From an uncultured Acidobacteriota bacterium (lineage in GTDB: Bacteria > Acidobacteriota > UBA6911): a stretch of DNA of 64,000 nucleotides. Shown piece after piece: positions 1,433 to 35,812 of this stretch. A model generated the notes under the pieces. The model ran no database searches. It saw only the letters and a program-made list of their open reading frames with translations, and was not told the origin of the DNA. Position numbers and translations under genes: made by a program. Location of the stretch: contig CAVZBT010000010.1 in assembly GCA_963773605.1 (NCBI GenBank), positions 281,608 through 345,607 of the forward strand. Direction: 5' to 3'. The stretch's first letter is position 1, and the number at the start of each line of letters is the position of its first letter.

Positions 1433-2848
1433 TCATTTCCCGGGGGGCGGGAAGCGCTTTGAGGCATCGTCGAGAACGAGCACCCAGTCGAGCAGTTCGC
1501 CGGGGGTTGGCGGCGTAAATTCCCGCTCGCCGCGGTTGGGAAATTCGCCGATGACCATCGCCTCGCCGTTGCGCGGGTTGAACCACCACGCCTTGACCCG
1601 CGGTCCGGCTACCGCGTCCATGCGCACCTTGAATTTACGCCCGACCGGCGCGTACACCATTGCGAAGCTCCCCTCGGAGTCGCGCGTGGCCGCGAAGCGG
1701 TAGCGGCCGGCGCCGGGCACCGAGGTCTTCACGTCGGCGGGCACTATGACGGTGTCGTCCGGGATGCGCGTGAGGAACGGGCGCGACTGGATCAGGCGTC
1801 GTCCGTATTGCATCTGGGACGCGCCCGGCTGGTCGACGGCCTCGAACCAGGGCATCAGCGGATTATTGACCGGCTGCCGCCCCGGGGCCCACATCTGCCA
1901 GACCGAGTGGTGGCCGTAGGTGTGGCCGAAGGCGCCGCCGAACAGGTCCCAGTACAGCGGACGCCTCACGTCGGCGGCGACCGAGTGACCGAGTTTGGCG
2001 GCGTCGAACGAGACCGGGTGGTCCTCATAAATCGGCTCGCCGTCCACGACGGGCTTCACCGGGGTGCGGTCGTAATCGGCGCGGGTCTGCGAGTAACGGC
2101 CCGTGAACTCTGTCACATGGCCGTTTTGGCGCATGTTGAAGTCCAGCCATTCGGCGTCGTGGAAGTAGGCCGAGGAACCCTGGCCGCCCGTCGGATGAAA
2201 GGTGTGGAGATGGATGCCGCCATCCCCCTGGTGCAGCCCCCAGACCATGCGCCGCACGATCTCACGCTGCGTGTCGTTTTCGATTGGCCTGTCGCCGCCC
2301 ATGATCCAGATGACCGGCTTGTCGCGGTAGCGCCGACCGATCCATTTGCCGTAGGCCTCGGCCTTGTCGGGCGTGAAAATCTCCGGCCCGACACCCCACT
2401 TCTTGTTCCACTTGTCCCCCCAGGTCGGGAGGAATCCGATGAAAAGACCCAGGCTGGTGGCCCGGTCGACGATGTAGTCCACGTGGTCCCAGTAGTCGTT
2501 CGCGGGACCGTCCCTGACGTCGGGTTTCGCGGGGTCGTTGTCGATCAGGGGGCGATGGCCGTAAGGATTGGGAGCGTTCAGCCCGTCGAGCTCTGCCAGC
2601 GCCACCGCCTGAATGACGGTAAAGCCCTTGCTGGCGCGGTCCCCCAGGTAGCGGTCGGCCTCCTCGCGGTTGAGCCGGTGAAAGAGCTCCCATGCGGTGT
2701 CGCCCAGGTAGAAAAACGGCCGCCCGTCGGCATAAACCAGGAAGCGACCGTTAGGACTGACCTTCAGGCGCGGTGCCTCGGCACCGGCCGCCCCGGATGC
2801 GGTCAGCAGAATGCTTACAAAGCCGAGCAGGCGCATGAATCTGGCCAT
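1433..2848 (-). CDS. GH140-like glycoside hydrolase (DUF4038 catalytic domain plus C-terminal collagen-binding-like domain)
   Basis: Motif [36 protein letters not shown]...GFTVIQ...LPTWGDKW is typical of DUF4038/GH140. Signal peptide present. Start chosen at the ATG at 2848 (MARFMRLLG), preceded by GAGAGGA. Confidence 0.7.
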
Positions 2849-3014
2849 AGTTCCTCTCGCGTGCTTACCCCAACGGAACACCCGCGGTAATTATTCCCGA
2901 AACAGACTACTCTCTCGCATCATTATTTTGAACGCCATGGTTTTGAGGCTCCGACTCGGTGAGAGCTTCGTTCCTCGTGCCGGGCCGGCCCACTTCTGGT
3001 ACAGTGAATCCACG

Positions 3015-5117
3015 ATGAGACTGGGGAAGGACCTCTGTTTGCTGGGCACGCTTTTCCTGTGCGCCTGCGCGCAGCGCGATGCGGCATACCACAGCTGGGC
3101 CGTCTACGGGGGTGGGGTCGATCAGATCCGCTACTCGCGGCTCGACCAGATCAACCGCGGCAACGTGTCCGGCCTGCGGCAGGCGTGGGTCTTCGACACC
3201 GGCGACGCGTTTCCGGGCTCCGAGATGCAGTGCAACCCCATCGTCGTGGACGGGATCCTGTATGCCGCCTCCCCGAAGCTGCGGGTGATCGCGCTGGACG
3301 CCGCGCGCGGCAGCCTGCGCTGGAGCTTCGACCCCTTCGAGGGGCGCGAGGTCAGGAACCGCCAGCGGGTCCGCGGGCTCGTCCACTGGAGCGACGGCGC
3401 GGAGCGGCGCATCTATTTTGGCGCCGGCCACGATCTCTGGGCGCTTGACGCCGCGACCGGCCGCCCCGCGACCGGCTTCGGGACGGGCGGCAAAGTCGAC
3501 CTGCGCGAGGGGCTCGGGCGCGATCCGGGTGCGCTGAGCGTCACCCTCACGACTCCCGGGGTGGTTTTCCGGGACCTGCTGATTGTCGGCAGCCTGGTCA
3601 GCGAGGCGCTTCCCTCCGCTCCGGGCGACATCCGTGCCTACGAACTGCGCACGGGTAAGTTGCGCTGGAGTTTTCACACGATCCCGCATCCCGGCGAGTT
3701 CGGCCACGAGACCTGGCCCGCGAACGCCTGGCAGTACGCGGGAGGCGCCAACAGCTGGTCGGGAATGGCGCTCGACGAGCGGCGCGGGCTCGTGTTCGTG
3801 CCGACCGGGTCGGCGGCGTTCGATTTCTACGGCGCCAATCGCCACGGCGATAACCTGTTCGCAAACTGCCTGCTTGCCCTGAGGGCCGAAACCGGGGAAC
3901 GCGTCTGGCATTTTCAGGCCGTGAGGCACGACGTCTGGGATCGCGATCTCCCGTCGCCGCCCAGCCTCGTCCAGGTGCGCCGGGATGGTCGCACCATCGA
4001 TGCGGTCGCGCAGATCACCAAGTCGGGGCACGTGTACGTCTTCGAACGCGAAACCGGTAAGCCCCTCTTTCCGATCGAGAACCGCAGGGTGCCGCCTTCG
4101 GATGTCGACGGCGAGGTGTTGGCCGCCGAGCAGCCGCTTCCCGCGGCGCCCCCGCCGTTTGCCCGGCAGCAACTGACCGAGGAAATGTTGACCCACCGCA
4201 CCCCGGAGGCGCACCAGTCCGCGGTCGACCGCTTCCGCGCGTTGCGCAGCGGCGGGCAGTTCACGCCGCCGAGCCGGGAAGGGACCATCGTGTTCCCGGG
4301 ATTCGACGGTGGGGGCGAGTGGGGCGGCAGCGCCTTCGACCCCGAGTCGCACCTGCTGTATGTCAACTCCAACGAAATGGCGTGGGTGCTTCGGCTCGTG
4401 CCGGTGCCGCCCGTGAAACCGCGCACCAGCGGCCAGCAGCTGTACGGCAGGCATTGCGCCTCCTGCCATCGGGCCGATCTGCGCGGCACTCCCCCCGAGT
4501 TTCCCGCCTTGAACGGGATCGCGGCCAAATACCCGGATTCGCGTATCGGGGAGATCATCCGCGACGGGAGCGGCCGCATGCCGGGCTTCGCAAACCTGCA
4601 GCCCTCCCTGATCGAGGCCATCACCCGGTATCTGGCTCGCGGGGATGCTGTGCCCGCTGTCGCGTCGGACGCGCCGTCGCCGCTTGACCTGAAGTACACG
4701 ACTGACGGATACAACAAGTTTCTAGACCCGGACGGCTATCCGGCACTCGAGCCTCCCTGGGGTACGCTCAACGCCATCGACCTCGACAAGGGCGAGATCG
4801 CGTGGAAGATCCCGTTCGGAGAGTTTCCCGAATTGGCGGCCAGGGGATTGCGCAACACCGGGACGGAAAACTACGGGGGGGCCGTCGTCACCGCCGGCGG
4901 GATCCTGTTTATCGGGGCTACGAATCACGATAAGAAATTCCGCGCGTTCGATAAGGCGACGGGCAAGCTGCTCTGGGAGACGGTCCTGCCCGCGGCCGGC
5001 AACGCCACCCCGGCGACCTACGAGGTCGGCGGCCGGCAGTATGTCGTGATCGCGGCGGGCGGCGGCAAGTCCGGCGCGCCTTCGGGCGGCTCCTATGTCG
5101 CCTTCGCGCTGCCATAG
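3015..5117 (+). CDS. PQQ-dependent dehydrogenase (quinoprotein, glucose/sorbosone type) with embedded cytochrome c domain; lipoprotein
   Basis: Beta-propeller repeats with W-motifs. CASCH heme-binding motif near residue 470 of the ORF. Lipobox LFLCAC after [12 protein letters not shown]. The longer ORF-track start at 2811 overlaps the divergent gene, so the ATG at 3015 was used. Confidence 0.85.
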
Positions 5118-8350: not shown

Positions 8351-8973
8351 TCGGGGGGCGGCGCCCCTTGGGCTTGCGGTTTCGGCGGCGGTAGCGCGCC
8401 CCGCGCGCGCAGTCTTCGGGCCAGGATGAAGGACGCGGCCAGCGCCAGCAGGACCCCCACGATCAGGAGGTAGTGGTCCCTGATCATGCCGGCAGCCTCG
8501 TCGCCGAAGCGGGCACCGAGCCAGCCGATGAGGGCATAACGCATCACGCGTGCCAGGGCGACCGCCGCAGCGAACGTGGCGATCGGGGTGCGGAACGCGC
8601 CGGCGGCCAGGATGACCGCTTTCGTCGGAAACGGAGGCGGCATGGCGACGCCTGTGAAAACTGCCCAGGCGGCGTTCCTCTGAATCAGGCGCTCGATGCG
8701 CTCGCGCCGGCCCGGAGAAAAGCGCGCCAGCGCGGCTTTTCCTCCGGCCATCCCGACACGGTAGAGGACGATGCAGCCGACCGTCGATCCCAGGGCAGCT
8801 GCCAGGACGATGAGCGGCACTTGCGCGGGGTTGTGCCAGGACAGCAGCAACACAACCGCGTCCGGGCCGCCCACCATGGGGACGGCGGCGGAATCCAGCA
8901 GTGCGAGGAGGAACACTCCGGGGATGCCGAGATAAACAAGATATTGACCGACCCGGTCGATTAGTCGCAGCAA
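8335..8973 (-). CDS. DedA/YqaA-family (VTT domain) membrane protein
   Basis: 212-aa multi-TM ORF with the ...PMVGGPDA... and ...PPPFPTKAVILAAGA... motifs of YqaA/DedA proteins. Apparent TTG start. Confidence 0.7.
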   Translation of the reverse strand: MLRLIDRVGQYLVYLGIPGVFLLALLDSAAVPMVGGPDAVVLLLSWHNPAQVPLIVLAAALGSTVGCIVLYRVGMAGGKAALARFSPGRRERIERLIQRNAAWAVFTGVAMPPPFPTKAVILAAGAFRTPIATFAAAVALARVMRYALIGWLGARFGDEAAGMIRDHYLLIVGVLLALAASFILARRLRARGALPPPKPQAQGAPPPDQPLG

Positions 8974-9020
8974 GATTCCCGCCCTAGAATTCGGATTGGG
9001 GCGTTATACCTTCGCGGGCA

Positions 9021-9209
9021 GGAAGAAGCGAGAAGAAAGTAGCCGGAAGCCGAAGACGGAAGCCAGAAGAACGGAAGCCAGAAGACGGACGGAAGCCGGA
9101 AGCCGGAAGAATCCAGTCTGTCCGGTGTCGGCCGTTCATGCATTCGGCTTCCGGCTTCCATCTTTGCCCTGTAGGCACCGGGCTTCCGGCTTCTTTCTTC
9201 CGGCTTCCT
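9021..9209. repeat. GGAAGCC-type polypurine arm (9021-9111) and GGCTTCC-type polypyrimidine arm (9145-9209) forming a long imperfect hairpin
   Basis: GGAAGCCGGAAGCCG at 9091-9105 is perfectly complementary to CGGCTTCCGGCTTCC at 9145-9159. Both arms are built from GGAAGCC(A/G)GAAGA-like units. The element sits directly upstream of the GH2 RBS. Confidence 0.85.
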
Positions 9210-9224
9210 GCATAGGAGGAATGT

Positions 9225-12128
9225 ATGGCCGTCAAAGTTCGGTCTGTCCTACTCAATGCCCCGGCCCGTCCTGGCTTCCGGCTTCTGCCTTTCGGCTTCC
9301 GGCTTCTGCCTTTGGCCTTCATGCTCCTCCAGGCGCCGGCGGTTGTGGCGCAGCCCGACGTGATCTCTCTTGCCGGGCGGTGGCGTTTTTCCCTCGACCG
9401 CGACGATCGCGGGCTCCAGGAGCGCATGTTCGAGACTGCGCTGCCCGGGGCAATCCGGCTGCCGGGGACACTTCCGGGGCAGGGCATCGGTGACGAGGTT
9501 ACGACTGCGACGCGGTGGACGGGGGACATCGTCGACCGCTCCTACTTCACCGAGCCCCAGTATGCGGAGTACAGGCGGCCGGGCAACATCAAGGTCCCCT
9601 TTTGGCTCCAGCCCGACCGGTATTATGCCGGGGTGGCGTGGTACCAGCGAAGCATCCGGGTGCCGTCACGCTGGAGCGGGAAACGGGTCGCCCTCCTGCT
9701 CGAGCGCCCGCACTGGGAGACGCGGGTGTGGCTGGACGGCAAGCCCGCCGGCGGCAACACGTCTCTCGGGACCCCGCACGAGTACGATCTCGGGACCAGG
9801 CTCGCTCCAGGGGGGCACACCCTCACGATCCGGGTGGACAACCGCATGGTGGTCGATGTGGGGGTGAATTCGCACAGCGTCTCCGACCACACGCAGGGAA
9901 ACTGGAACGGTATCGTCGGGCGAATCGAGTTGAGCGCGACCCCGCTCGTGTGGATCTCGGACCTGCAGGTGTTTCCTCATGTGGCCGCGAAATCCGTCAC
10001 GGTCAAGGGCCGCACCGGCAACGCCACCGGGAGCCCCGGCCGCGGCTCGGTGCGGATTGCGGTCCGCCGCGCGCCGCCGGGCGCGGGCGCAGGGATTGCC
10101 GCGCGCACGGTGGGTGTGTCGTGGGACTCCTCCGGCGGGACGTTCCAGGCGGAGATTCCGCTCGGCGCCTCCGCCGAAACCTGGGACGAATTCAACCCCG
10201 CGCTGTACGAGGCCACGGCTGCCCTCGGCCCGGAGGCACACGCGCGCTCCGCGACTTTCGGGATGCGCGAGATATCCACTCGAGGCACTCAGTTTGTGCT
10301 CAACGGCCGCAAGATATTTTTCCGGGGCACGCTCGAATGCGCCATCTTCCCGCTGACCGGCCACCCCCCGGTGGATGTCGAGTCCTGGCGGCGCATCATC
10401 CGTGCGGCAAAGGCGCACGGGCTGAACAATATCCGGTTCCACTCCTGGTGCCCGCCCGAGGCCGCGTTCGTTGCGGCCGACGAACTCGGGTTCTACCTGC
10501 ACGTGGAGTGTTCTTCGTGGGCGAACGGCTCGACCGGTCTGGGAGACGGCCGTCCCGTCGACCGCTGGATCTATGAAGAGGCGGACCGGATCCTCGCCGC
10601 CTACGGCAATCACCCTTCGTTCCTGCTCATGCCGTACGGGAACGAGCCGGGAGGCAAGAATCACGCGGCGTTCCTTTCCCGGTGGGTCGCACATTACCGG
10701 ACTGCCGACTCACGCCGCCTGTACACGAGCGGGGCCGGCTGGCCGCAGCTTCCCGAGAACCAGTTTCACGTGGCGCCGGACCCACGCGTCCAGGCCTGGG
10801 GCGCGGGCCTGAACTCCCGCATCAATGCACGCGCGCCCGAGACCCGGACCGACTACCGCGACTACATCGCCGGCCGGGCCGTCCCGGTGATCAGCCACGA
10901 GATAGGGCAATGGTGCGTCTACCCCGACTTCGAGGAGATGACGAAGTACACGGGGTATCTGAAGCCCAAAAATTTCGAGATTTTCCGCGACCGTTTGCGC
11001 AAAAAAGGGATGCTCGAACAGGCGCAGGCTTTCCTGATGGCATCCGGGAAACTGCAGACCCTCTGTTACAAGGAGGACATCGAGTCGGCGCTGCGGACCC
11101 CGGGGATGGGAGGCTTTCAGCTCCTCGACCTTCACGATTTCCCGGGGCAGGGGACCGCGCTCGTCGGCGTGCTCGACCCGTTCTGGGACTCGAAGGGATA
11201 CGTCACACCCGCCGAGTACAGCCGCTTCTGCAACAGCACCGTGCCGCTTGCGCGCCTGGCCAAGCGGGTGTTTACCACCGCCGAGCCGCTCGAGGCGCAG
11301 CTCGAGGTCACCCACTTCGGCCCCCGGCCGATTGCAGGGGCGGTCGCCGCCTGGAGCCTCGTCGACGAGGCCGGGAAAGCGCAGCGATCGGGCAAGCTGC
11401 CGGCCGCCGATGTGCCGGTGGACAGCGCCGTCGCCCTGGGCCCGATACGGGCGGACCTCGCCGGGTTGACCGCGCCGGCACATTTCAGGCTGGTTGCCGC
11501 CATTGAAGGCACCCCGTTCGAGAACGATTGGGACCTTTGGGTCTACCCTGCGACGCTGCCCGACCCCGGCGGTGCACGCGTCGCGATCGCACGGGAACTG
11601 GACGACGAGACGCTCGGGGCCCTTACCGCCGGCGGCAGGGTGCTGCTGCAGATACCGCCGGCGCGCGTGGCGCCGGACCCCGCCCTGGGCCCCGTCGCGC
11701 TCGGGTTTTCCAGCATTTTCTGGAACACCGCGTGGACGAAACGGCAGGCGCCGCACACGCTCGGCATACTGTGCGACCCGCACAACCCCGCCCTGGCCGA
11801 TTTCCCCACTGAGTACCACAGCAACTGGCAATGGTGGTACCTGGTCAGCAGCGCGGGGGCGATGATCCTGGACCACCTGCCTCGCGGGCTGAACCCGATC
11901 GTGCAGGTGATCGATGACTGGTTTACCGCGCGGAGACTCGGCCTGGTTTTCGAGGCCAGGGTCGGCAAGGGGAAGCTCGTCGTCTGCAGCGTCGATCTGG
12001 AGAGCGGGTTCGAAAACAACCCTGTAGCGCGTCAATTGCGGTACAGCCTGCTGCGTTATATGGCGGGGGAGGGCTTTTTGCCGGCCACTGAACTCACGCC
12101 GGCTCAAGTGCGAGCGCTGTACCGATGA
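9225..12128 (+). CDS. glycoside hydrolase family 2-like enzyme (beta-galactosidase/glucuronidase-type sugar-binding, Ig-like and TIM-barrel domains)
   Basis: 967-aa ORF. The N-terminal jelly-roll region (WYQRSIRVP...LLLERPHWETRVWLDG) and the TIM barrel (NNIRFHSWCPPE...NEPGG) resemble GH2. GGAGGA RBS 5 nt before the ATG. Confidence 0.8.
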   Translation: MAVKVRSVLLNAPARPGFRLLPFGFRLLPLAFMLLQAPAVVAQPDVISLAGRWRFSLDRDDRGLQERMFETALPGAIRLPGTLPGQGIGDEVTTATRWTGDIVDRSYFTEPQYAEYRRPGNIKVPFWLQPDRYYAGVAWYQRSIRVPSRWSGKRVALLLERPHWETRVWLDGKPAGGNTSLGTPHEYDLGTRLAPGGHTLTIRVDNRMVVDVGVNSHSVSDHTQGNWNGIVGRIELSATPLVWISDLQVFPHVAAKSVTVKGRTGNATGSPGRGSVRIAVRRAPPGAGAGIAARTVGVSWDSSGGTFQAEIPLGASAETWDEFNPALYEATAALGPEAHARSATFGMREISTRGTQFVLNGRKIFFRGTLECAIFPLTGHPPVDVESWRRIIRAAKAHGLNNIRFHSWCPPEAAFVAADELGFYLHVECSSWANGSTGLGDGRPVDRWIYEEADRILAAYGNHPSFLLMPYGNEPGGKNHAAFLSRWVAHYRTADSRRLYTSGAGWPQLPENQFHVAPDPRVQAWGAGLNSRINARAPETRTDYRDYIAGRAVPVISHEIGQWCVYPDFEEMTKYTGYLKPKNFEIFRDRLRKKGMLEQAQAFLMASGKLQTLCYKEDIESALRTPGMGGFQLLDLHDFPGQGTALVGVLDPFWDSKGYVTPAEYSRFCNSTVPLARLAKRVFTTAEPLEAQLEVTHFGPRPIAGAVAAWSLVDEAGKAQRSGKLPAADVPVDSAVALGPIRADLAGLTAPAHFRLVAAIEGTPFENDWDLWVYPATLPDPGGARVAIARELDDETLGALTAGGRVLLQIPPARVAPDPALGPVALGFSSIFWNTAWTKRQAPHTLGILCDPHNPALADFPTEYHSNWQWWYLVSSAGAMILDHLPRGLNPIVQVIDDWFTARRLGLVFEARVGKGKLVVCSVDLESGFENNPVARQLRYSLLRYMAGEGFLPATELTPAQVRALYR

Positions 12129-12130
12129 AC

Positions 12131-12165
12131 GGAAGCCAGAAGACGGAAGACGGAAGCCAGAAGAC
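12131..12165. repeat. GGAAGCC-type polypurine repeat arm (left arm flanking the four-helix-bundle gene)
   Basis: GGAAGCCAGAAGACGGAAGACGGAAGCCAGAAGAC lies immediately after the GH2 stop codon. Same unit family as 9021-9111. Confidence 0.85.
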
Positions 12166-12247
12166 AAATTCTCCCCCTGTCACGGATATGTTTTGAGGCG
12201 GCTGGAAACTACCTCGAGGGGGAAAACCTTTCGGGGGGGGAAATCAG

Positions 12248-12613
12248 ATGCGAGTTGCGGCAAGGACTTTTCGGGACTTGACGGTGTGGCAGCAATCCCA
12301 CCAGTTGGTTCTTGAAGTGTATCGATTTACGGCGGCGTTGCCGAAAACCGAAGCGTACGGTCTGATCCAGCAAATGAGACGGGCTGCGGTTTCCATCCCC
12401 GCCAACATAGCAGAAGGTTTCGCACGGCGCGGCAAAGCCGACAAAGCTCGCTTCATGAACATGGCCGAGAGCTCTCTCGAAGAATGCCGGTACTATCTGA
12501 TCCTGTCCCGGGATCTGAGCTACGGTTCAACGGACACCCTTATGAGCTCGCTGGAGGAGCTCAGCCGGAAGTTGAACGCCTACACGCGTGCCATTCTGGA
12601 TTCGCAAACCTGA
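12248..12613 (+). CDS. four-helix-bundle protein (23S rRNA intervening-sequence protein family, Avd-like fold)
   Basis: 121 aa with the family hallmarks FRDLxVWQxSHxLVLEVY...QMRRAAVSIPANIAEG...SLxEcxYYL. Confidence 0.9.
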   Translation: MRVAARTFRDLTVWQQSHQLVLEVYRFTAALPKTEAYGLIQQMRRAAVSIPANIAEGFARRGKADKARFMNMAESSLEECRYYLILSRDLSYGSTDTLMSSLEELSRKLNAYTRAILDSQT

Positions 12614-12625
12614 ACCGCACGTTGT

Positions 12626-12676
12626 CTTTCTTCCGGCTTCTGGCTTCCGCTTTCCGGCTTCCGTCTTCCGCTTCCT
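12626..12676. repeat. GGCTTCC-type polypyrimidine repeat arm (right arm flanking the four-helix-bundle gene)
   Basis: CTTTCTTCCGGCTTCTGGCTTCCGCTTTCCGGCTTCCGTCTTCCGCTTCC. Its reverse complement shares GGAAGCCAGAAG and GAAGACGGAAG blocks with 12131-12165. Confidence 0.85.
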
Positions 12677-13271
12677 ACTTGATCCTGACGTCCTTGATGG
12701 TGATCGGCTGGAGCGGGACGTTGTTGTAGGAGCCCTTGGACCCCGTCGGGACGCCCTCGATCTGTTCGACGACGTCCATGCCCGCGGTCACCTTGCCGAA
12801 AACGGCGTAACCGAAGTCGGCCGGGGCGGCCCCGCGGTGATCCAGCGGGCCGTTGTCGACGGTATTAATGAAGAACTGCGCGGTCGCGCTGTTGACTTCT
12901 CCGGTGCGCGCCATCGCCAGGGTGCCGCGTTTGTTCTTCAGGCCGTTGCCCGCCTCGTTGGCGATCGGGGGCAGGGTGGGTTTCCTCTTCATGTCCTCGG
13001 TAAAGCCGCCCCCCTGGATCATGAAGCCTTTGATCACGCGATGAAAGATGGTCCCCTTGTAGAATCCCACCTTGCAGTAGGCGAGGAAATTCTCGACCGA
13101 CTTGGGGGCCTTGTCCTGAAACAGTTCCGCCGTGATGTTGCCACGGTTCGTTTCGATGACGACGACGGGATTGGCGCCCTGAGCCCTGGCCATGCCGGTG
13201 AATCCCGCCATCAGCGCCAGGCAGAGTGTGGTAATGGAAAGTGCCGCTGCAGTCTTTTTGCTCAATGCCAT
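12675..13271 (-). CDS. secreted cyclophilin-type peptidyl-prolyl cis-trans isomerase
   Basis: 198 aa. Signal peptide. Cyclophilin motifs FHRVIKGFMIQGGGF and GTLAMAR. GGAGG RBS. Confidence 0.9.
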   Translation of the reverse strand: MALSKKTAAALSITTLCLALMAGFTGMARAQGANPVVVIETNRGNITAELFQDKAPKSVENFLAYCKVGFYKGTIFHRVIKGFMIQGGGFTEDMKRKPTLPPIANEAGNGLKNKRGTLAMARTGEVNSATAQFFINTVDNGPLDHRGAAPADFGYAVFGKVTAGMDVVEQIEGVPTGSKGSYNNVPLQPITIKDVRIK

Positions 13272-13391
13272 GATGCCTCCGGTTCGGTTGTGAACCGCAT
13301 CATAATACTCGAGCGCCCGCCCGATTGCACCGGCGAGTTAGCCGTTTCCCTGCGGCACGATAACCGCCTATAATCGTCGCGGGGCCACGGC

Positions 13392-14390
13392 ATGAAACAG
13401 ATCTCGATCATCGGCGCCGGAAACTGGGGGACCGCCCTGGCCGTCGCGCTGGCCCGCACAGGGCGTCCGGTGCGGCTCTGGGGCTTCGAGCGCGAGGTCG
13501 TCGAAAGCATCCGGCTCCGCCGGGAGAACGAGCTTTACATGCCCGGGGTGACCGTTCCGCCCAGCGTGATGGCCACGGGTGACCTGGGTGAAGCGCTGGC
13601 CGGCGTCGAGATCGTCCTCACCGTGATGCCCTCGCACATCTGCCGGGGCCTCTTCCGGCAGATGCTCCCGCACCTGCGCCCCGAGATGGTTTTCGTCAGC
13701 GCCACGAAAGGGATCGAGACCGAGAGCCTGATGCGGATGAGCGAGGTCATCGGTGCGGTCGTGCGCGACCGGTTCGAGCCGCACCTGTCGGTGCTCTCGG
13801 GCCCGAGCTTTGCGCGCGAAGTGGCGCGGGGCGACCCGACGGCCGTGGTCGTTGCGGCGGTCGACCGGCACGTGGCCAGCCTGGTTCAGCGGGAATTTTC
13901 CTCAACGACGCTGCGGCTGTACTCCTCATCGGATGTGACGGGGGTGGAGCTCGGGGGCGCTGTCAAGAATGTCATCGCGATCGCGGCCGGCGTGATCCAC
14001 GGGTTGGGCCTCGGCCACAACCCCACGGCGGCGCTGTTGACGCGCGGTCTTGCGGAGATCACCCGGCTCGCCTGCGCGTGCGGGGCGCGGCGCGAAACCA
14101 TGTCGGGGCTGGCCGGCATGGGCGACCTTGCCCTGACATGCACCGGGGACCTCAGCCGCAACCGCATGGTCGGGATGGAACTCGGGCGGGGCGCGAAACT
14201 GGCCGATATCGTCGCCTCGATGCGGATGGTGGCCGAGGGGATAAAGACGACCAAAGCCACAGTCCGACTCGCGGAGAAGCACGGGGTGGAGGTGCCGATC
14301 ACAAACCAGGTCAACCGCATCCTGGAAGGCGACATTTCGCCGTGCGAGGCGATCCGCGAGCTGATGGAACGTTCCCTGAAGGAAGAATAG
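13392..14390 (+). CDS. gpsA: NAD(P)H-dependent glycerol-3-phosphate dehydrogenase
   Basis: 332 aa. N-terminal IIGAGNWGTALA Rossmann motif. Conserved GVELGGAVKNVIAIAAG and GDLxLTC blocks. Confidence 0.95.
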   Translation: MKQISIIGAGNWGTALAVALARTGRPVRLWGFEREVVESIRLRRENELYMPGVTVPPSVMATGDLGEALAGVEIVLTVMPSHICRGLFRQMLPHLRPEMVFVSATKGIETESLMRMSEVIGAVVRDRFEPHLSVLSGPSFAREVARGDPTAVVVAAVDRHVASLVQREFSSTTLRLYSSSDVTGVELGGAVKNVIAIAAGVIHGLGLGHNPTAALLTRGLAEITRLACACGARRETMSGLAGMGDLALTCTGDLSRNRMVGMELGRGAKLADIVASMRMVAEGIKTTKATVRLAEKHGVEVPITNQVNRILEGDISPCEAIRELMERSLKEE

Positions 14391-14579
14391 CCAAAGCAGT
14401 AGACGGGGAGGCCCCGCCCCCCGAATGGGCTGCAACCGGCGCCGGCTCGACGACGGCGAGCTGAGTCTGTTCCGCAGCCACAGCCGTGAGCGAAACGGTG
14501 GGGGCGCGCGGGTGCTGGCGGCGCTTGCTGGGTTGTCACTCACCGGGAGCGGGGGTCGTGGCGACCCGCCCACTTCGCG

Positions 14580-14942
14580 ATGGAGGAGCGCATGGAACGA
14601 AAGGTCGTGGTGCTGGTGCGGCAGGCAGGCCTCGGAGTGGTGCGTCCCGAGGACGGGGAGTTTGGTGAATCGATGTTCGAAAAATTCCTGCACTCGCTGG
14701 AAAGTCAGCCGGTCAAGCCGCGGGCGATCTGTTTCTACACGGAAGGGGTAAGGCTTGCGTGTCGCGGCTCGTCCGTGCTCTTCGCCCTGAGGCTGCTCGA
14801 GGGGATGGGGGTGCGCATCGTGCTTTGCAGTTCGTGCCTGGACCGCTTCGGGTTGAGGGAGAGCGTGGAAATCGGCGAAGTGGGCGGGATGCAGGAAATC
14901 TCCGGGCTGCTGATGTCCGCCGACAGCGTCGTGACCGTGTGA
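14580..14942 (+). CDS. DsrE/DsrF-like family protein
   Basis: About 120 aa. KVVVLVRQAGLG...AICFYTEGV...GVRIVLCSSCLD pattern resembles DsrE-family proteins. An alternative start at the ATG at 14592 lies just after GGAGGA. Confidence 0.55.
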   Translation: MEERMERKVVVLVRQAGLGVVRPEDGEFGESMFEKFLHSLESQPVKPRAICFYTEGVRLACRGSSVLFALRLLEGMGVRIVLCSSCLDRFGLRESVEIGEVGGMQEISGLLMSADSVVTV

Positions 14943-14997
14943 GGAAGCATAAGGGAAGCCGAAGCGGAAACGCTGAGAACAAGGTCCGTTTTGTCCT

Positions 14998-15423
14998 TTA
15001 ACGCTCTTCGTCCGGCTCGTCGCGCAACCGGTCCTGGTAGTCCTCGGACGACGCAGGGTCGAACTCCCACCTTTTGCGGTCGCGTTCCTGTAGTTTTTCC
15101 GCCGAACGCAGCGGTTCGTTGTCCTCGTAGTTGATCCCGACCGCGTTGGCCAATTCCTCTGCAATATCCTGGTCCGGCGTGGGATTCTGGCCGCCGACCG
15201 ACTCCTCACCCACATCGGATCGCTCCCATTCCGCGTCGAGATCCCCTCCCGAGAGTTGAGGCGTCATGGAGTGGTGCTCCCGGAGCTTGCGGGCGAGCTG
15301 TTTCGGTCCGGATCCCGCGAGTTTCTGGGCCTCGTCGAATTCCCATTCGATTTCAGGATCGACGGGATCGTTCGAGCTTTCCGCTCTCCCTGCGTCGATG
15401 ACCCTTTTGTCTTCCTTTCCCAT
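14998..15423 (-). CDS. small acidic hypothetical protein
   Basis: 141-aa protein-like C-terminal part of a longer ORF. Starts at MGKEDKR (ATG at 15423) behind a GGGAGGA RBS. The upstream part of the ORF track runs through the repeat array and is not coding. Confidence 0.55.
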   Translation of the reverse strand: MGKEDKRVIDAGRAESSNDPVDPEIEWEFDEAQKLAGSGPKQLARKLREHHSMTPQLSGGDLDAEWERSDVGEESVGGQNPTPDQDIAEELANAVGINYEDNEPLRSAEKLQERDRKRWEFDPASSEDYQDRLRDEPDEER

Positions 15424-15475
15424 AGGTCCTCCCTGCTCCGGATCATATGCAACTCCCGTGCCCGATCGAAATCCG

Positions 15476-15630
15476 GTAGGCGGCTGCGCAAGGTCGGCGC
15501 CTAGGCGCCGACCGCAAAGCGGCGTCGAGCCGCCGCACTCCAAAGTATGGAGTGCGGTGCCTGGGCACCGCTGTCTGGGTTTGGCTGGACCGGCAGGCGG
15601 GTGCGCAAGGTCGGCGCGCCGACCCGAAAG
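15476..15630. repeat. composite palindromic (REP-like) repeat array, part upstream of the intron
   Basis: The unit contains the nested palindromes GGTCGGCGCC-TAG-GCGCCGACC, CCGCACTCC-AAAGTAT-GGAGTGCGG and GGTGCC-TG-GGCACC. It is the same unit as in 16594-17100. Confidence 0.9.
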
Positions 15631-16593
15631 GTGTGCCGAGCATGTACGACAGCTCGGAAGTGAAAGTCTTCCACCAACCTGATGGAGGTGAAGGGTAGCA
15701 GAGCGCAAGGGCGCCCGCCGCGAGGCGGGGTCTGAAAGAAGCGCCGAGCAAAAGCACGAGCCGATGGACAAAAACCGGATGAGGCGGGTAGCGCCGGACG
15801 AGCGGCCCTTTGACCGCAAAGTCCATATCCATCAAGGGCGCCGCACGTAGATCCGGCGGTTGTGTGCGGAAGGCGGTCGTACTTACCTCGGGAGGTCTGC
15901 ACGTGTTCTGGGGGACCAGAACTGAGAGATCCGTGAGGGTCCCTGACCGCGATGCAGAAGTCAGCAGACGGCATAGTAAGAGGCGGCAGTCGGATCACTC
16001 GACCGGGGCACTCACCCGAAAGGGGAGAAACAGTAGGGGTCGCGGAACCGGGAACGCGCTGATGAAGGCCCGAACGGCTCCCTTCTGGGAAGAAGGGTAA
16101 ATGGTGACGCGAGTAGGGACAGGGACTCATGGGCAGAAAGCGGCAGAAGAACCAGCTTGAGCTGGCCTTCACGGCAGAGACGAGGGGTGAAGCCCCGGCG
16201 CCTGGCGGAAGGGTCGAACTGCACATGGTGAAACAGGAGCCGGAAAGCGAAGGCAGCCCGGAGCGGCTGATGGAGGGGGTATGTGAGCCGGAGAATCTGA
16301 GAAGGGCGTTGAAACGAGTGCAGGCCAACAAGGGGGCACCGGGAATCGACGGCATAACGGTCGAGGAGTTGCCGAACTACCTGAAGAAGAACTGGCCCAG
16401 ACATCGGGAAGAGCTGCTCGAAGGGACCTACAGGCCGAAACCTGCGCGAAGGATGCCGAACGCCTACTTCGATTCGCTGGGCCTCCCGCGCTTAGTTGCT
16501 CTATACGGTCGCTAACCAGCCGAATCGCCGTGTACGGACCCGTACGCACGGTGGTGTGACAGGGACAGCGGGCGACCGCCTACCTATGTCGAT
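15631..16593 (+). mobile_element. class C (IIC) group II intron, ORF-deleted derivative
   Basis: The 5' end GUGUGCCGAGCAUG and the internal CAGAAGUCAGCAGA block closely resemble the Oceanobacillus iheyensis IIC intron as I recall it. Domain V at about 16524-16555 (AAUCGCCGUGUACGGACCCGUACGCACGGUGGUGUG) has a 2-nt bulge and the IIC-type CGC triad. The flanks rejoin to an intact repeat unit. Confidence 0.8.
16129..16515 (+). pseudogene. internally deleted group II intron reverse transcriptase/maturase (IEP) remnant
   Basis: The N-terminus ...ENLRRALKRVQANKGAPGIDGITVEEL...LLEGTYRPKP (RT0/RT1) is fused directly to the typical IEP C-terminal tail PNAYFDSLGLPRL. The RT2-7, X and En regions are missing. 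Confidence 0.85.
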
Positions 16594-17100
16594 CGGCGTC
16601 GAGCCGCCGCACTCCAAATGTGGAGTGCGGTGCCTGGGCAGTCGAGCCGCCGCACTCCACACAAGTTGGTTTGGCTGGGCGACGGTATTGCCCTCCGCAT
16701 TATTTGGAGAGGGTGCGGTGCCTCGGCACCGCTTTCGCGGTTGCACTGTATCGGTAGGTGCGGCCGAAGTGCGGCGTCGAGCCCGCCTGCGGCACCGCTG
16801 TCTGGGTTTGGCTGGACCGGCAAGCAGGTGCGCAAGGTCGGCGCCTAGGCGCCGACCCCAAAGCGGCGTCGAGCCGCCGCACTCCAAAATATGGAGTGCG
16901 GTGCCTGGGCACCGCTGTCTGGGTTTAGCTGGACCGGCAGGCAGCTCCGCAAGGTCGGCGCCTAGGCGCCGACCGCAAAGCGGCGTCGAGCCGCCGCACT
17001 CCAAAGTATGGAGTGCGGTGCCTGGGCACCGCTGTCTGAGTTTCGCCGGACTGGCAAGCAGGTGCGCAAGGTCGGCGCCTGGGCGCCGCACTCCGGAGTG
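16594..17100. repeat. tandem array (about 4 units of roughly 125 bp, one degenerate) of the composite palindromic REP-like repeat
   Basis: Repeated CGTCGAGCCGCCGCACTCCAAA(G/A)TATGGAGTGCGGTGCCTGGGCACCGCTGTCTGGGTTTGGCTGGACCGGCAGGC.GGTGCGCAAGGTCGGCGCCTAGGCGCCGACC.CAAAGCGG. Confidence 0.9.
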
Positions 17101-17312
17101 CTGATGCAAATTTTCCCGCCAGTGCGGCCGCGCTGCCGCGGAGCTGTCCCGCGCTGGTTGTTCTGCAAACCCGGTCAATCAACTACTTTCTTGGAGCCTT
17201 GGATCCCCCGGCGACTTTTGGGTCAGGCGCTTGCATGGAGGGTGGCCCTTGGGGCCGAGGTGGCTGTTCGGCGGAGAGTGAAGGGCTCGACGCCGAAGGA
17301 AAGGACGGGTCA

Positions 17313-18293
17313 ATGAATCCCTGGCAGAGAGGAGTCTTGGTCGCGCTCGCCATCGCCACGATCGCGCCGCCGCGCGCCCCCGCGGAAACGGATGGAGTGG
17401 ACTGCAGGAGTCTCACGATCCGGGTGCACGATGCGACCGGATTGGGGGTGCCCAACGCCCTGGTGACATTTGATCGTGGCTGGTCGGTGCCCACAGACCA
17501 GGAGGGCCGGGCCAAACTCGAGTGCAACGCCGGCGTCCGCGATGCAATTTCGCTGCAAGTGGAGGTGACGGCTCGCGGCTACAGGCCTGCCTTCGCGACC
17601 ATTTCGATCAGCAACCGTTCGATCAGCAACCGGATGTCCGGCGACAACGAGATTTACCTGGAGCGGGATATAGACGATGCCAAAACCCTCCCCGTGGCAA
17701 CGACCGTCTCCGCAAGAGAGTTGTCCGGGGAAGTCCAGAACCGTTCGGCTTCGCTGCAGGAAGAGGGTATACTGGCCCTGAAACGGGGTGACTACGCCGA
17801 CGCCGAGCAGCTGTTCCGGCACGCCCTGGAACTTACCCCATCCTCGAGCTCCATCTACAACAACATCGGCATCTCGTACCTGCGCCGCTACAAGTTCGAA
17901 GAAGCCACGCGGTGGTTGGAAAAGGCGGTGAAGATTGCGCCGTACGACCCGCATATGCTGGGAAATCTCGGGTTGATGCGCTGGCTGCAGGGGCGTTACG
18001 AGGAAAGCTATCGGCTTCTCGATCGGGCAGTGACCGGCGGATTCTCCGCACCTGCTGCCCACTTCATGCTCGGCGTGCTGTTGCTGCAGAAGGGGCAGGT
18101 CGCCAAGTCCGTCGACGAGTTGAAAAAATCGGACGAGAACAAATACCCCATGCGTGATTTGTACTTGTCCATCGCACTGCACGCCCTGGGGAAGGACAAG
18201 GCCGCATCGAAGACTTACGACGAATTCACAAGGAAGAGCCCCGCGCCACTGCTCAGCGCCATGATCCCCAGCAAGCTCGCCGGCGATCGTTGA
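17313..18293 (+). CDS. secreted TPR-repeat protein with N-terminal carboxypeptidase-regulatory-like beta domain
   Basis: Start at MNPWQRGVLVALAIA (ATG at 17313) after AAGGAAAGGA. TPR-like repeats (AEQLFRHALELTPSSSSIYNNIGISY..., ATRWLEKAVKIAPYDP...). Confidence 0.7.
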   Translation: MNPWQRGVLVALAIATIAPPRAPAETDGVDCRSLTIRVHDATGLGVPNALVTFDRGWSVPTDQEGRAKLECNAGVRDAISLQVEVTARGYRPAFATISISNRSISNRMSGDNEIYLERDIDDAKTLPVATTVSARELSGEVQNRSASLQEEGILALKRGDYADAEQLFRHALELTPSSSSIYNNIGISYLRRYKFEEATRWLEKAVKIAPYDPHMLGNLGLMRWLQGRYEESYRLLDRAVTGGFSAPAAHFMLGVLLLQKGQVAKSVDELKKSDENKYPMRDLYLSIALHALGKDKAASKTYDEFTRKSPAPLLSAMIPSKLAGDR

Positions 18294-18303
18294 GGTGCTA
18301 AAT

Positions 18304-18345
18304 CTTCCGGCTTCGGGCTTCCGGCTTCCATCTTCCGTTCCCTCC
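18304..18345. repeat. solo GGCTTCC-type polypyrimidine repeat between convergent genes
   Basis: CTTCCGGCTTCGGGCTTCCGGCTTCCATCTTCCGTTCCCTCC lies 10 nt after the TPR gene stop. No purine-rich partner arm was seen nearby. Confidence 0.8.
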
Positions 18346-18402
18346 TTAACGGGGAGAAATTACCCGGTTCCCCTGACAGGTTTACAATGCCCGCCCCAGG
18401 TG

Positions 18403-19131
18403 CTACAGGTCTGCGCGGAAAAACAGTCTCCCATCCGCGGGCACGGATCTTACCTGCCGAAAACCCGCCCGATGCAGCGCGTCGAGGACATCGCCCTCCG
18501 GATAATACGTCTCCAGGATCGTGACGTCGGACCGCTCCCAGGCGGCGGTCCGGCGAAACATCGTTATGTCCGCGTGGGCGACCCGGGTTTCGGGATTGTA
18601 GCCGCCCCGGACAAAACAGGCATTGTCGTCTTCGACGATGGCGTGCGATTTATTCCACTCCACCCGGTAGGTCTCTTCCGTCAAGACATCGAACACGAAG
18701 CAGCCCCCTTCGACGAGCGCTGCGGCGACGTTGCGGAAGACGGCCTCGAGTTCGATGAGGGTTGGAATGTGATTCATGCTCTCGAACGTCGATACGGCCA
18801 GCTGGTATTCGCGGGGGAGCCGGATGGAGCGCGCGTCGGCGGCGATGAAGCTGCCGTCGGGGACATTGTCGCGCGCGAAGCGGAGCATCTCCTCGGATCC
18901 GTCGACCCCCGTGACCTGGCATCCCTTGTCCGCCAGCATGCGGGTGAGTTGGCCGGTGCCGCAGCACAGGTCGAGCATGCGGCAGCCTGGCCCTGCCAGC
19001 CGGGGGGCGAGCAGTTCGATGTTTGCGAAGGCGAGACGGTGATAGGCGTCGCCCCAGTGCCGGTTGTAGAACCAGGCGAGAGGGTCGTAGTCACGATATT
19101 GGGGCGCCGGCCCCTCGCTCGACGAGCACAT
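18403..19131 (-). CDS. class I SAM-dependent methyltransferase
   Basis: 242 aa. Motif I MLDLCCGTGQL and post-I DGSEEML. Confidence 0.85.
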   Translation of the reverse strand: MCSSSEGPAPQYRDYDPLAWFYNRHWGDAYHRLAFANIELLAPRLAGPGCRMLDLCCGTGQLTRMLADKGCQVTGVDGSEEMLRFARDNVPDGSFIAADARSIRLPREYQLAVSTFESMNHIPTLIELEAVFRNVAAALVEGGCFVFDVLTEETYRVEWNKSHAIVEDDNACFVRGGYNPETRVAHADITMFRRTAAWERSDVTILETYYPEGDVLDALHRAGFRQVRSVPADGRLFFRADL

Positions 19132-19234
19132 GTGGTCTCCCTGTCAGAACAAGGGGCGGAACCGTGCCCTGCAGGTGGCCCGGTCGCGGGCGCGCCCCCG
19201 GCAATATTTTTACGCTTCGCCGCCCCGGAGGAAA

Positions 19235-19981
19235 TCATAGGACTGCGTCCGGACCGGCGGCCCCGATAAACGACCTGAGCTCGAGAGCGTTCGCGACGGC
19301 GTGTCCGCCGACATCGTTGTTGAAATACGCGTGCACGTCCAGGCCGCCTGCTTGCCATTGCGTAATGGTCCGGGCCCAGCCCTCCAGTTCCCGCTTGCCG
19401 TAACGACCGCCGTGGCCCGGGCCTCCGTGAAACCGCACGTAAACAAAAGGCGCCGTGACCCGGCAGGGGACCGGCCCGCTTCCCAGGTCGTGGATGCACA
19501 GCGCGACTCCGCAGCGCTCCATGAGCCGAAGCACTTCATCGATCACCCAGCCGGGCTCCCGGAATTCTATGGCGTGCTGGCGTGAACGCGGCAGCGCAGC
19601 CACGAAGCGCTCGAACCGCGGCAGGTTCACGCGCCAGCGTGGGGGAAGCTGGTACAGGACCGGGCCGAGCGACCCGCCGAGGAGGCCGGCGCGGTCGAAG
19701 AAAAGCCGCAGCGGCCCTTCCGGATCCTTCAGCTTCTTCATGTGCGTCAGGAAACGGCTTGCTTTGACGGCGAAAGTGAAGCCTTCGGGTGCCCGTTTTC
19801 GCCAGACTTCGAAAGCGGCCGCGCTGGGCAGGCGGTAAAACGAGTTGTTGAGCTCGACGGTATCGAAGCGGGCAGTGTAATAGTCCAGCCAGAGCCGTTG
19901 CGGGAGGTTCTCGGGGTAGAAGCTGCCGCGCCAGTGCGGGTATACCCAGCCCGAGGTCCCGATCCGGCATGCGCCCGCCAT
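19235..19981 (-). CDS. DUF72 domain-containing protein (YecE-like)
   Basis: IGTSGWVYPHWRGSFYP...YYTARFDTVELNNSFYRLP hallmark. The ATG at 19981 is preceded by GGAGG; the ORF-track start at 19996 is a TTG. Confidence 0.85.
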   Translation of the reverse strand: MAGACRIGTSGWVYPHWRGSFYPENLPQRLWLDYYTARFDTVELNNSFYRLPSAAAFEVWRKRAPEGFTFAVKASRFLTHMKKLKDPEGPLRLFFDRAGLLGGSLGPVLYQLPPRWRVNLPRFERFVAALPRSRQHAIEFREPGWVIDEVLRLMERCGVALCIHDLGSGPVPCRVTAPFVYVRFHGGPGHGGRYGKRELEGWARTITQWQAGGLDVHAYFNNDVGGHAVANALELRSFIGAAGPDAVL

Positions 19982-35354: not shown

Positions 35355-35708
35355 AGAATCGTCTATCAGGATCTCGAAGCCCCGTTCAACCAGATAAGGC
35401 CGTCCGCCGGGGGGCAACAACGGTTCCCCGGGCTGCCCCCGGACGGTGCGTAAAACCTTGTGCTATGGCCAAGATCCCAACCCGCTGTTTCTGGGCCAAC
35501 GCCGCCTGACATGGAAATGATCCTCTGGGCCTACGACTTGGTATTGGCTTTCCAGATGCTCTGTCTGCCAATATTAGTTCAGCACTGGAACATCTCCCCC
35601 CTGCGCGGGGAACTTTGGTGGGTTCCCGCCGAGTAGCCAATAAAATCGCGGATATCCAGCATCCAAAACCTCGTCCGCCGCAGTCCAAGAATGCGAAGCG
35701 TCTTGTTT

Positions 35709-35812
35709 GGAGTGCGGCGGCTCGACGCCGCTTTTGGGTGCGGCGCCTAGGCACCGCACTTTCGCCGAACTTGCCCGACTGCAGTGCAACCGCGAAAGCG
35801 GTGCCGAGGCAC
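35709..35812. repeat. REP-like repeat copy (inverted orientation relative to the array)
   Basis: GGAGTGCGGCGGCTCGACGCCGCTTTTGGGTGCGGCGCCTAGGCACCGCAC, followed by a segment matching the reverse complement of 16715-16750. Confidence 0.8.

Follow-up and report, generated by a model that had tools for sequence, protein, structure and literature searches.

Between a GH2-family gene and a convergent cyclophilin gene of an uncultured Acidobacteriota bacterium lies a cassette that consists of a purine-rich arm of tandem heptamers, a gene for a four-helix-bundle protein of the PF05635/TIGR02436 family, and a complementary, pyrimidine-rich arm. It occupies positions 12129-12676 of the window, by which we mean the whole stretch of 64,000 nucleotides analysed here (GenBank assembly GCA_963773605.1, contig CAVZBT010000010.1, positions 281,608 to 345,607 of the forward strand; GTDB lineage UBA6911). 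This arm-gene-arm layout recurs in many bacterial phyla, mostly at junctions between co-oriented genes, and one relative lies within a 23S rRNA gene, where it is a true intervening sequence (IVS). The window cassette is probably a free-standing, non-rRNA member of the family of IVSs that carry an open reading frame (ORF), one that would be transcribed by read-through, fold into a long stem, and be processed.

The origin and purpose of 23S rRNA IVSs and of their four-helix-bundle proteins have been open questions since the early 1990s. The PF05635-type family is very large, and to our knowledge its function is known solely in diversity-generating retroelements (DGRs). If it is true that the rRNA IVS is one landing place of a mostly intergenic cassette, the question becomes approachable in tractable organisms, clean copies being present in cultured cyanobacteria such as Nostoc punctiforme PCC 73102.

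Anatomy of the window cassette

The cassette takes up the whole gap between its neighbours, the GH2-family gene (9225-12128, plus strand) and the cyclophilin gene (12675-13271, minus strand): the 5' arm begins one base past the GH2 stop codon, and the 3' arm terminates on the stop codon of the cyclophilin gene. At 12131-12165 the 5' arm reads GGAAGCC AGAAGAC GGAAGAC GGAAGCC AGAAGAC, in perfect 7-nt phase. The repeat search returned inverted arms at 12129-12164 and 12629-12664, which are 36 nt long each, 83% complementary, and separated by 464 nt (the features are collected in Table 1). The inverted-repeat score of these flanks is 21.5, as compared with a highest value of 12.5 among the 326 control pseudo-cassettes defined below. 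The heptamer GGAAGCC occurs 33 times in the window as compared with 15.3 +/- 4.7 times in shuffled sequences, none of 100 shuffles reaching 33, and about half of these copies are clustered in the cassette, in a gene-less hairpin, and in a solo array. The original prediction, made from the sequence without database searches, had placed the cassette arms, the gene, the hairpin, and a solo array at particular coordinates, all of which were borne out by the sequence and the repeat search.

Apart from the four-helix-bundle gene, no ORF of appreciable size between the arms has a family match. Its product matches PF05635 (E = 6.5e-36, 123.2 bits, cut-off 33.8), TIGR02436 (E = 1.3e-34, 118.7 bits, cut-off 24), and the solved structure of the Xanthomonas protein XCC0516 (PDB 2GSC, E = 4e-19). 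Homologues with 58-78% identity to it are found across phyla. The DGR protein Avd belongs to the same fold family, but the window protein matches the Avd equivalog model NF033474 weakly, with 25.8 bits, far under the 80-bit cut-off. Unlike in DGRs, neither a reverse transcriptase nor a pair of template and variable repeats was seen beside the window gene, the neighbours of which are the GH2 and cyclophilin genes. The defence-system models of PADLOC gave no match to the cassette protein at E values up to 0.01.

Apart from the source contig, a single contig, of 1.3 kb (L001), is recorded as encoding an identical protein. Over 1287 nt, the sole difference between the window and this independent assembly lies in the G run at 12226-12233, just before the ATG, which comprises eight residues in the window and seven in L001. 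Either the tract varies in length or the difference is an artefact of sequencing.

Heptamer arms in homologues and in a 23S rRNA gene

The layout of the window cassette was compared with that of 80 homologue loci, which encode proteins 58-73% identical to the window protein and come from Acidobacteriota, Verrucomicrobiota, Cyanobacteria, Nitrospirota, Chloroflexi, Desulfobacterota, Planctomycetota, Clostridia, and other groups. The gene, of the free-standing type, is intact and strongly conserved at all 80 of them; 54 loci are free-standing, and 25 lie in units that resemble insertion sequences (IS-like units). Arms were called at an ungapped inverted-repeat score of at least 12 between the 150 nt that precede the start codon and the stop codon with its surroundings and downstream sequence, and 326 pseudo-cassettes set elsewhere within the same loci served as controls. 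By this measure, inverted heptamer arms are present at 51 of the 54 free-standing loci and in 0.9% of the controls (Mann-Whitney p = 2e-29). Homologous four-helix-bundle genes in other genomes are flanked by such arms, and the observation is general.

What defines the arms is their 7-nt period together with their inverted arrangement, and not the sequence GGAAGCC, to which the original prediction had given the defining part. The consensus of the 5' arm in the homologue loci is A-G-R-A-(G/A/T)-(T/C)-C, purine-rich on the coding strand, and the units differ by subfamily. AGGAGTC is the most frequent one in the subfamily of the window protein, AGAAGCC and AGAAGAC, which are used in the window, are found at other loci too, and GGAAGCC is a rare GC-rich variant. 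In one pair of orthologous cassettes, with AGAATCC units at one locus (L056) and AGAACTC units at the other (L069), both arms have changed in concert. The commonest arm length is five units, found in 20 of the 49 arms upstream of the gene and in 21 of the 53 downstream of it.

The arms also overlap the ends of the gene. The 5' arm generally reaches the start codon (e.g., ...CAGGAGTCAGAATG), with a median gap of 16 nt, so that the ribosome-binding site falls within it. At 34 of the 52 loci, the 3' arm overlaps the end of the coding region, so that the final codons, stop codon included, consist of heptamers, as in the gene end GCC ATT CTG ACT CCT GAC TCC TGA, which is composed of ATTCTGA and CTCCTGA units. 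By comparison the window cassette is atypically loose: 82 nt of spacer separate its 5' arm from the ATG, and its 3' arm starts 12 nt past the stop codon. At the 25 loci of the IS-like type, which is found in many Acidobacteriota, the four-helix-bundle gene stands last in a unit that measures about 2.15 kb, has a conserved end (...CATATCCCGAAGGGATATCAAGGGCGAAGCCCTTGCCTAGTTAG; e.g., L010:2260-4412, L011-L013, and L020/L063), and also carries a divergent ORF of 539-578 aa; mere remnants of the 3' heptamers are retained. One genome holds four copies of this unit at 99.9% identity. The divergent ORF has no match in Pfam or NCBIfam.

More distant relatives are represented by 13 annotated plasmid-borne members of the family, 30-63% identical to the window protein. 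Period-7 inverted arms flank 10 of the 13, including members with as little as 30-48% identity, with units that differ among them: AGGAGTC, TTAGCTG, TTAGCTT, GGGTGTA, GGTGACA, GGGAAAA, GGGAGTA, AAGGTTY, and CAGAGGA/CGGATGA. In two others an insertion sequence lies directly upstream and the 3' heptamers alone have been kept, and the remaining one has no arms. A single-protein scan of viral-labelled contigs gave two loci (L219 and L220), near-identical copies of one locus with GTAGGGA arms; their 3' arms differ by one heptamer unit, which indicates that arms vary in length by a slippage-type process.

The copy of Azospirillum lipoferum 4B (AZO_p2) lies within a 23S rRNA gene. At this locus (L211), the Rfam match to large-subunit (LSU) rRNA extends over 1684-4882, and the ORF is located at 2818-3249. 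The arms are made of CAGAGGA CGGATGA CAGAGGA CGGAGGA and their complement, each unit being about one base apart from the units CAGAAGA CGGAAGA CGGAAGC of the window. This copy is a true IVS, and it is decisive for the idea of an IVS-like cassette.

Similar heptamers have been described in the IVS of Coxiella burnetii, in which the start codon of S23p is preceded by AGAAGA and by GACAGAT in three tandem copies, and the number of heptamer units has been found to vary among strains (PMC4990558). The termini of this IVS pair in a 28-bp stem, which RNase III cleaves where the first repeat begins (PMC4990558). The S23p ORF has been reported as decaying and probably untranslated. The window cassette resembles the 23S IVSs of C. 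burnetii, in helix 45, and of Leptospira, in which a long terminal stem closes a loop that holds a PF05635 ORF of about 120 aa, with tandem purine-rich heptamers directly before its start codon. The units themselves are close, GACAGAT in Coxiella and CAGAGGA/CGGATGA in Azospirillum as compared with CAGAAGA/CGGAAGC in the window. Like the heptamer cassettes, 23S IVSs vary in repeat copy number between strains, and ORF-less forms of them exist. In contrast to these IVSs, the window cassette is located between the GH2 and cyclophilin genes and not in helix 25 or 45 of the rRNA, and the decaying state of the Coxiella ORF differs from that of the free-standing genes, intact in 80 of 80 loci. The window element has the structural features of an IVS without the location in 23S rRNA, and it is IVS-like rather than an IVS in the strict sense. 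The original idea, in which an IVS-like hairpin outside rRNA carries the four-helix-bundle gene as cargo in its loop, has gained support from the 51 free-standing loci, the Azospirillum 23S copy, and the Coxiella literature.

Paired heptamer arrays have also been reported in Geobacter metallireducens, as "class 3 global regulator binding sites" that form eight inverted pairs with the consensus MTYCTGA (Aklujkar et al., 2009; PMC2700814). These sites usually comprise five tandem heptanucleotides, with the pairs 80-100 nt apart and located between consecutive genes of operons; they have been interpreted as binding a protein of the IHF/HU type, and they were not tied to PF05635 or to IVSs (PMC2700814). 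MTYCTGA is the pyrimidine unit of the main subfamily found here, of which the window units are a GC-rich variant, and the Geobacter pairs resemble the gene-less hairpins found in this work, including the layout of window positions 9021-9208.

Tandem direct repeats of heptamers are well known in cyanobacteria as short tandemly repeated repetitive (STRR) sequences. The TAACTGA repeats of Beggiatoaceae are likewise heptamer tandem repeats of bacteria (PMC4679880). Both are similar to the arms in that they are intergenic 7-nt tandems, often mixed, close to start codons, and abundant in the same kinds of genomes. Unlike the cassette, they have been described as direct repeats, with other units and with neither a partner arm nor an enclosed gene. 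In the literature searched, no link was found between non-rRNA PF05635 genes and heptamer arms, the Geobacter sites, or IVSs. If the relationship proposed here is true, it unites the heptamers of the Coxiella IVS, the paired sites of G. metallireducens, and the heptamer repeats of cyanobacteria, which are treated separately in that literature.

The cassettes tend to be inserted tightly between genes. The flanks could be read for 48 free-standing cassettes; 36 of these have neighbours on both sides that share their orientation, and the 5' arm usually begins at most about 16 nt from the upstream stop codon. Sites confirmed with Pfam separate the genes for an ECF sigma factor and its zinc-finger anti-sigma factor, those for NuoF and NuoG, and the catalytic and B12-binding parts of methylmalonyl-CoA mutase, and another site lies between two ribonucleotide reductase subunit genes. 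In N. punctiforme PCC 73102 (NPUN_RS35280, pNPUN02), the arms constitute the entire gaps, of 38 and 16 nt, to the neighbouring genes. Cassettes were also seen between cas6 and cas4 of CRISPR-Cas operons, on pANA02 of Anabaena sp. 90 (L207) and pPg_01 of Pseudanabaena galeata (L212), with different arm units in the two plasmids, GGTGACA in one and TTAGCTT in the other. By their presence inside nuoF-nuoG, sigma/anti-sigma, and cas6-cas4 operons, the cassettes may influence how transcripts are processed and how adjacent genes are coupled. Several lineages retain the cassette at one site, with a protein divergence that tracks that of the flanking genes; the cassettes are therefore long-term residents, and their genes are intact.

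As to the window locus itself, the named matches of the GH2 gene are from Limisphaerales and Verrucomicrobia. The two nearest GH2 orthologues (75-76% identical) are syntenic with the window, and two further homologues are not. The order in the syntenic relatives is a VTT-domain gene (minus strand), a gap of about 97 nt, the GH2 gene, a beta-lactamase-family gene, an ORF of 56 aa, the cyclophilin gene (minus strand), and a glycerol-3-phosphate dehydrogenase gene. In the window, the VTT-GH2 gap measures 251 nt and harbours a hairpin, and the cassette stands in place of the beta-lactamase-family gene and the 56-aa ORF. This difference in gene order supports presence and absence of the cassette at the level of gene calls, as gene tables were compared. 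The comparison of orthologous loci proposed at the outset has thus provided two syntenic relatives without the cassette, while a clean empty site was not found in these tables.

Proposed working and alternative explanations

In both minimum-free-energy and centroid predictions of the cassette transcript, the arms pair with one another (z = -2.89), as expected in the original prediction. Pairing of the arms is also predicted for the window hairpin at 9021-9208 (z = -6.27) and for the N. punctiforme cassette (z = -4.26), the outer stem of which comprises about 35 bp. A promoter scan of 8900-13400, which covers sigma-70 consensus sites only, revealed no promoter-like site, and nothing in the promoter and terminator scan exceeded the level of shuffled sequences. 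Rfam yielded no rRNA in 8500-19500 and no known RNA family over the arms.

The predicted folds, the result of the promoter scan, the co-oriented position, and the Coxiella data together form the basis of the following model. The cassette, probably devoid of a promoter of its own, would be transcribed by read-through from the co-oriented GH2 gene. In the transcript, the purine-rich 5' arm and the pyrimidine-rich 3' arm would form a stem of about 35 bp that encloses the whole reading frame. By analogy with the rRNA-borne copies, RNase III might process this stem, and the cassette would thereby be clipped out of the host transcript or separated from it. Such clipping would explain how the cassette is tolerated within rRNA as well as at the junctions of tightly coupled cistrons. 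In most members of the family, the stem would moreover bury the ribosome-binding site, in the 5' arm, and the stop codon, in the 3' arm, which might confine translation to the time before the 3' arm is synthesized. The cassette may also be mobile.

A number of observations weigh against this model, the restricted scope of the promoter scan among them. Excision by RNase III has been demonstrated for rRNA-borne IVS copies only, and cleavage of the window cassette would hold by analogy with them. The window copy is itself atypical: its arms are merely 83-85% complementary, and owing to the 82-nt spacer the stem leaves the ribosome-binding site uncovered. The mismatches between arms, as read on the sense strand, comprise 29 G-T and 29 A-C, and 17 T-G and 11 C-A. 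As there is no excess of G.U-compatible mismatches, nothing in the sequence marks the sense RNA as the structure under selection, and pairing at the DNA level or gene conversion between the arms would fit the pattern equally well. Since the mismatch types are equal, at 29 each, this wobble test was dropped as support for selection on the sense-strand RNA. A scan of metagenomes for the arm pattern GGAAGCCRGAAGMCNGAAG, which favoured pure (GGAAGCC)n arrays, returned 80 loci, none of which holds a homologue of the four-helix-bundle gene, contrary to the earlier notion that the arms mark such genes. Lastly, the constant period of 7, the five-unit mode, and the subfamily-specific units are unexplained by a stem alone. 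They suggest, if one may speculate, that the repeats are recognised by a protein, which could be the cassette's own pentameric product.

The heptamer arrays might accordingly be sites for an oligomeric nucleic-acid-binding protein, with an inverted layout that serves autoregulation or regulation at the level of the chromosome. The binder could be the cassette's own pentamer, with one heptamer per protomer, or a host factor of the IHF/HU type as proposed for Geobacter. This explanation, which we consider somewhat unlikely, can coexist with that of a processed RNA stem. It is consistent with a period of 7 that is invariant when the sequence of the unit varies by protein subfamily, and with the five-unit mode, which is shared by 15 of the 16 Geobacter sites and has a counterpart in the nearest solved structure, 2GSC, made of five chains of one sequence and described as a homopentamer. 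The weak score of the related Avd protein and the absence of a sense-strand wobble bias also speak for it. However, five units equally fit about three turns of an RNA helix, and the ribosome-binding site and the coding overlap account for part of the sequence conservation. Gene-less hairpins furthermore persist with no such gene nearby, and the binding itself would be hypothetical.

A more encompassing proposal is put forward tentatively, with a low probability in our estimation. PF05635 genes and paired five-heptamer arms may represent one widespread autonomous module that colonises operon junctions as well as rRNA helices and is the source of the ORF-bearing IVSs, its pentamer recognising the array specific to its own subfamily with one unit per protomer. 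Many of the unexplained heptamer repeats and paired sites of cyanobacteria, Geobacter, Acidobacteriota, and Verrucomicrobiota would then be gene-less footprints of this module.

It is unlikely that the cassette is a mobile element at the DNA level, of which the arms are the terminal inverted repeats, the four-helix-bundle protein is the mobility factor, and the gene-less hairpins are derivatives akin to miniature inverted-repeat transposable elements (MITEs) or empty landing sites. A patchy distribution would be in keeping with it, the syntenic relatives having other genes at the site and a VTT-GH2 gap of about 97 nt instead of 251 nt, as would the 58-73% identity of homologues across phyla. 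Many gene-less hairpins have inner ends, CAGAAT...ATTCTG, in common with full cassettes, and mobility has previously been proposed for IVSs. On the other hand, no target-site duplication was seen by eye at the ends of the window or Nostoc cassettes, no transposase- or recombinase-like domain is present in the cassette, and several lineages retain the cassette at one site, with divergence that tracks the flanks. The only clear multiplication seen, which is also the sole near-identical multicopy case, is a hitch-hiking of the cassette gene in the 2.15-kb IS-like unit.

Could the arms be ordinary, slippage-prone heptamer microsatellites of the lineage that flank the gene by chance? The 80 metagenome loci of the GGAAGCC type, with no gene at any of them, comprise 66 solo arrays and 11 hairpins, and numerous solo arrays consist of nothing but (GGAAGCC)n and adjoin other heptamer arrays; GGAAGCC arrays are thus mostly microsatellite-like in their own right. 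The window itself has a solo array and an in-frame array, and copy number varies between near-identical loci. Such a chance association is nevertheless very improbable, and is disfavoured for the cassette, given the arms at 51 of 54 homologue loci as opposed to 0.9% of controls and their overlap with the start and stop codons of the gene. Among close gene-less pairs of arms (at most 150 nt apart), moreover, 24 run from purine to pyrimidine (12 in the homologue loci and 12 in the metagenome loci) and 2 in the reverse order. Independent microsatellites may account for the window arrays at 18304 and 9266-9320, which the metagenome result makes difficult to assign with confidence.

An action of the purine and pyrimidine tracts through triplex DNA (H-DNA), which had also been suggested, has next to no likelihood and was set aside: it derives just from the strand asymmetry of the arms, which are about 78-81% purine in the window with a C in every unit, one or two pyrimidines interrupt each unit, and the units of other subfamilies, such as TTAGCTG and GGTGACA, are not purine tracts.

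Gene-less hairpin and other repeats of the window

Table 1. Heptamer-repeat features and the four-helix-bundle gene, in window coordinates
Feature	Position	Strand	Remarks
Purine arm of gene-less hairpin	9021..9109	+	Same repeat family as cassette; in VTT-GH2 gap
Pyrimidine arm segments of gene-less hairpin	9145..9208	+	Pieces 9145-9159 and 9172-9208
In-frame pyrimidine heptamer array	9266..9320	+	21-nt super-period; within GH2 signal peptide (PGFRLLPFGFRLLPLAF)
5' purine-rich arm of cassette	12129..12165	+	Five tandem heptamers, phased at 12131-12165; repeat search and sequence reading
Spacer / 5' leader	12166..12247	+	82 nt from 5' arm to ATG; predicted local hairpin and G run 12226-12233
Four-helix-bundle gene	12248..12613	+	121 aa, PF05635 / TIGR02436; sole such gene in window
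3' pyrimidine-rich arm of cassette	12626..12676	+	About seven heptamers, complement of 5' arm
Solo pyrimidine heptamer array	18304..18337	+	Between convergent TPR (+) and methyltransferase (-) genes

The hairpin at 9021-9208 sits in the gap that separates the VTT-domain gene, on the minus strand, from the GH2 gene, on the plus strand. The perfect 15-bp pairing reported for it was confirmed, 9091-9105 (GGAAGCCGGAAGCCG) being the exact reverse complement of 9145-9159, and the arms can be extended to 9088-9112 and 9138-9162. It had been thought to be an unoccupied or excised form of the cassette; of this, the gene-less nature has stood, such hairpins being common and catalogued in G. metallireducens. 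By analogy with the IVSs that lack an ORF, the hairpin can be regarded as a gene-less form of the cassette element.

The in-frame array lengthens the signal peptide of the GH2 protein by about 19 residues relative to its 75-76% identical orthologues, the N-termini of which otherwise align from the first methionine. Near the solo array at 18304-18337, neither a partner arm nor a remnant of a four-helix-bundle gene was found, which makes its membership in the cassette family uncertain. Both arrays represent either decayed arms or independent heptamer microsatellites.

Adjacent, partly complementary arrays of other heptamers, such as TTTGTCA followed by AATGACC, were observed at several cyanobacterial loci (L049:8170-8300, L073:8181-8338, and others), and paired heptamer arrays may be a wider phenomenon in cyanobacteria.

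Two other elements were noticed between the cassette and the end of the window. At 15714-16593 (plus strand, about 880 nt), Rfam detected group II intron domains, namely D1-D4-3 (E = 1.4e-25), D1-D4-1, and domain 5/6. The two ORFs tested within this segment lie on the opposite strand and gave no match in Pfam, and from its sequence the segment looks like an ORF-less group II intron. A second repeat family, located at 15487-15535, 16785-17088, and 35706-35757, includes 2.6 copies of a 117-nt unit with the motif AGCGGCGTCGAGCCGCCGCACTCCAAA, and its copies flank the intron. The AGCGGCGTCGAGCCGCCGCACTCCAAA repeat resembles what we take to be a dispersed intergenic repeat of Verrucomicrobia, Planctomycetes, and Acidobacteria.

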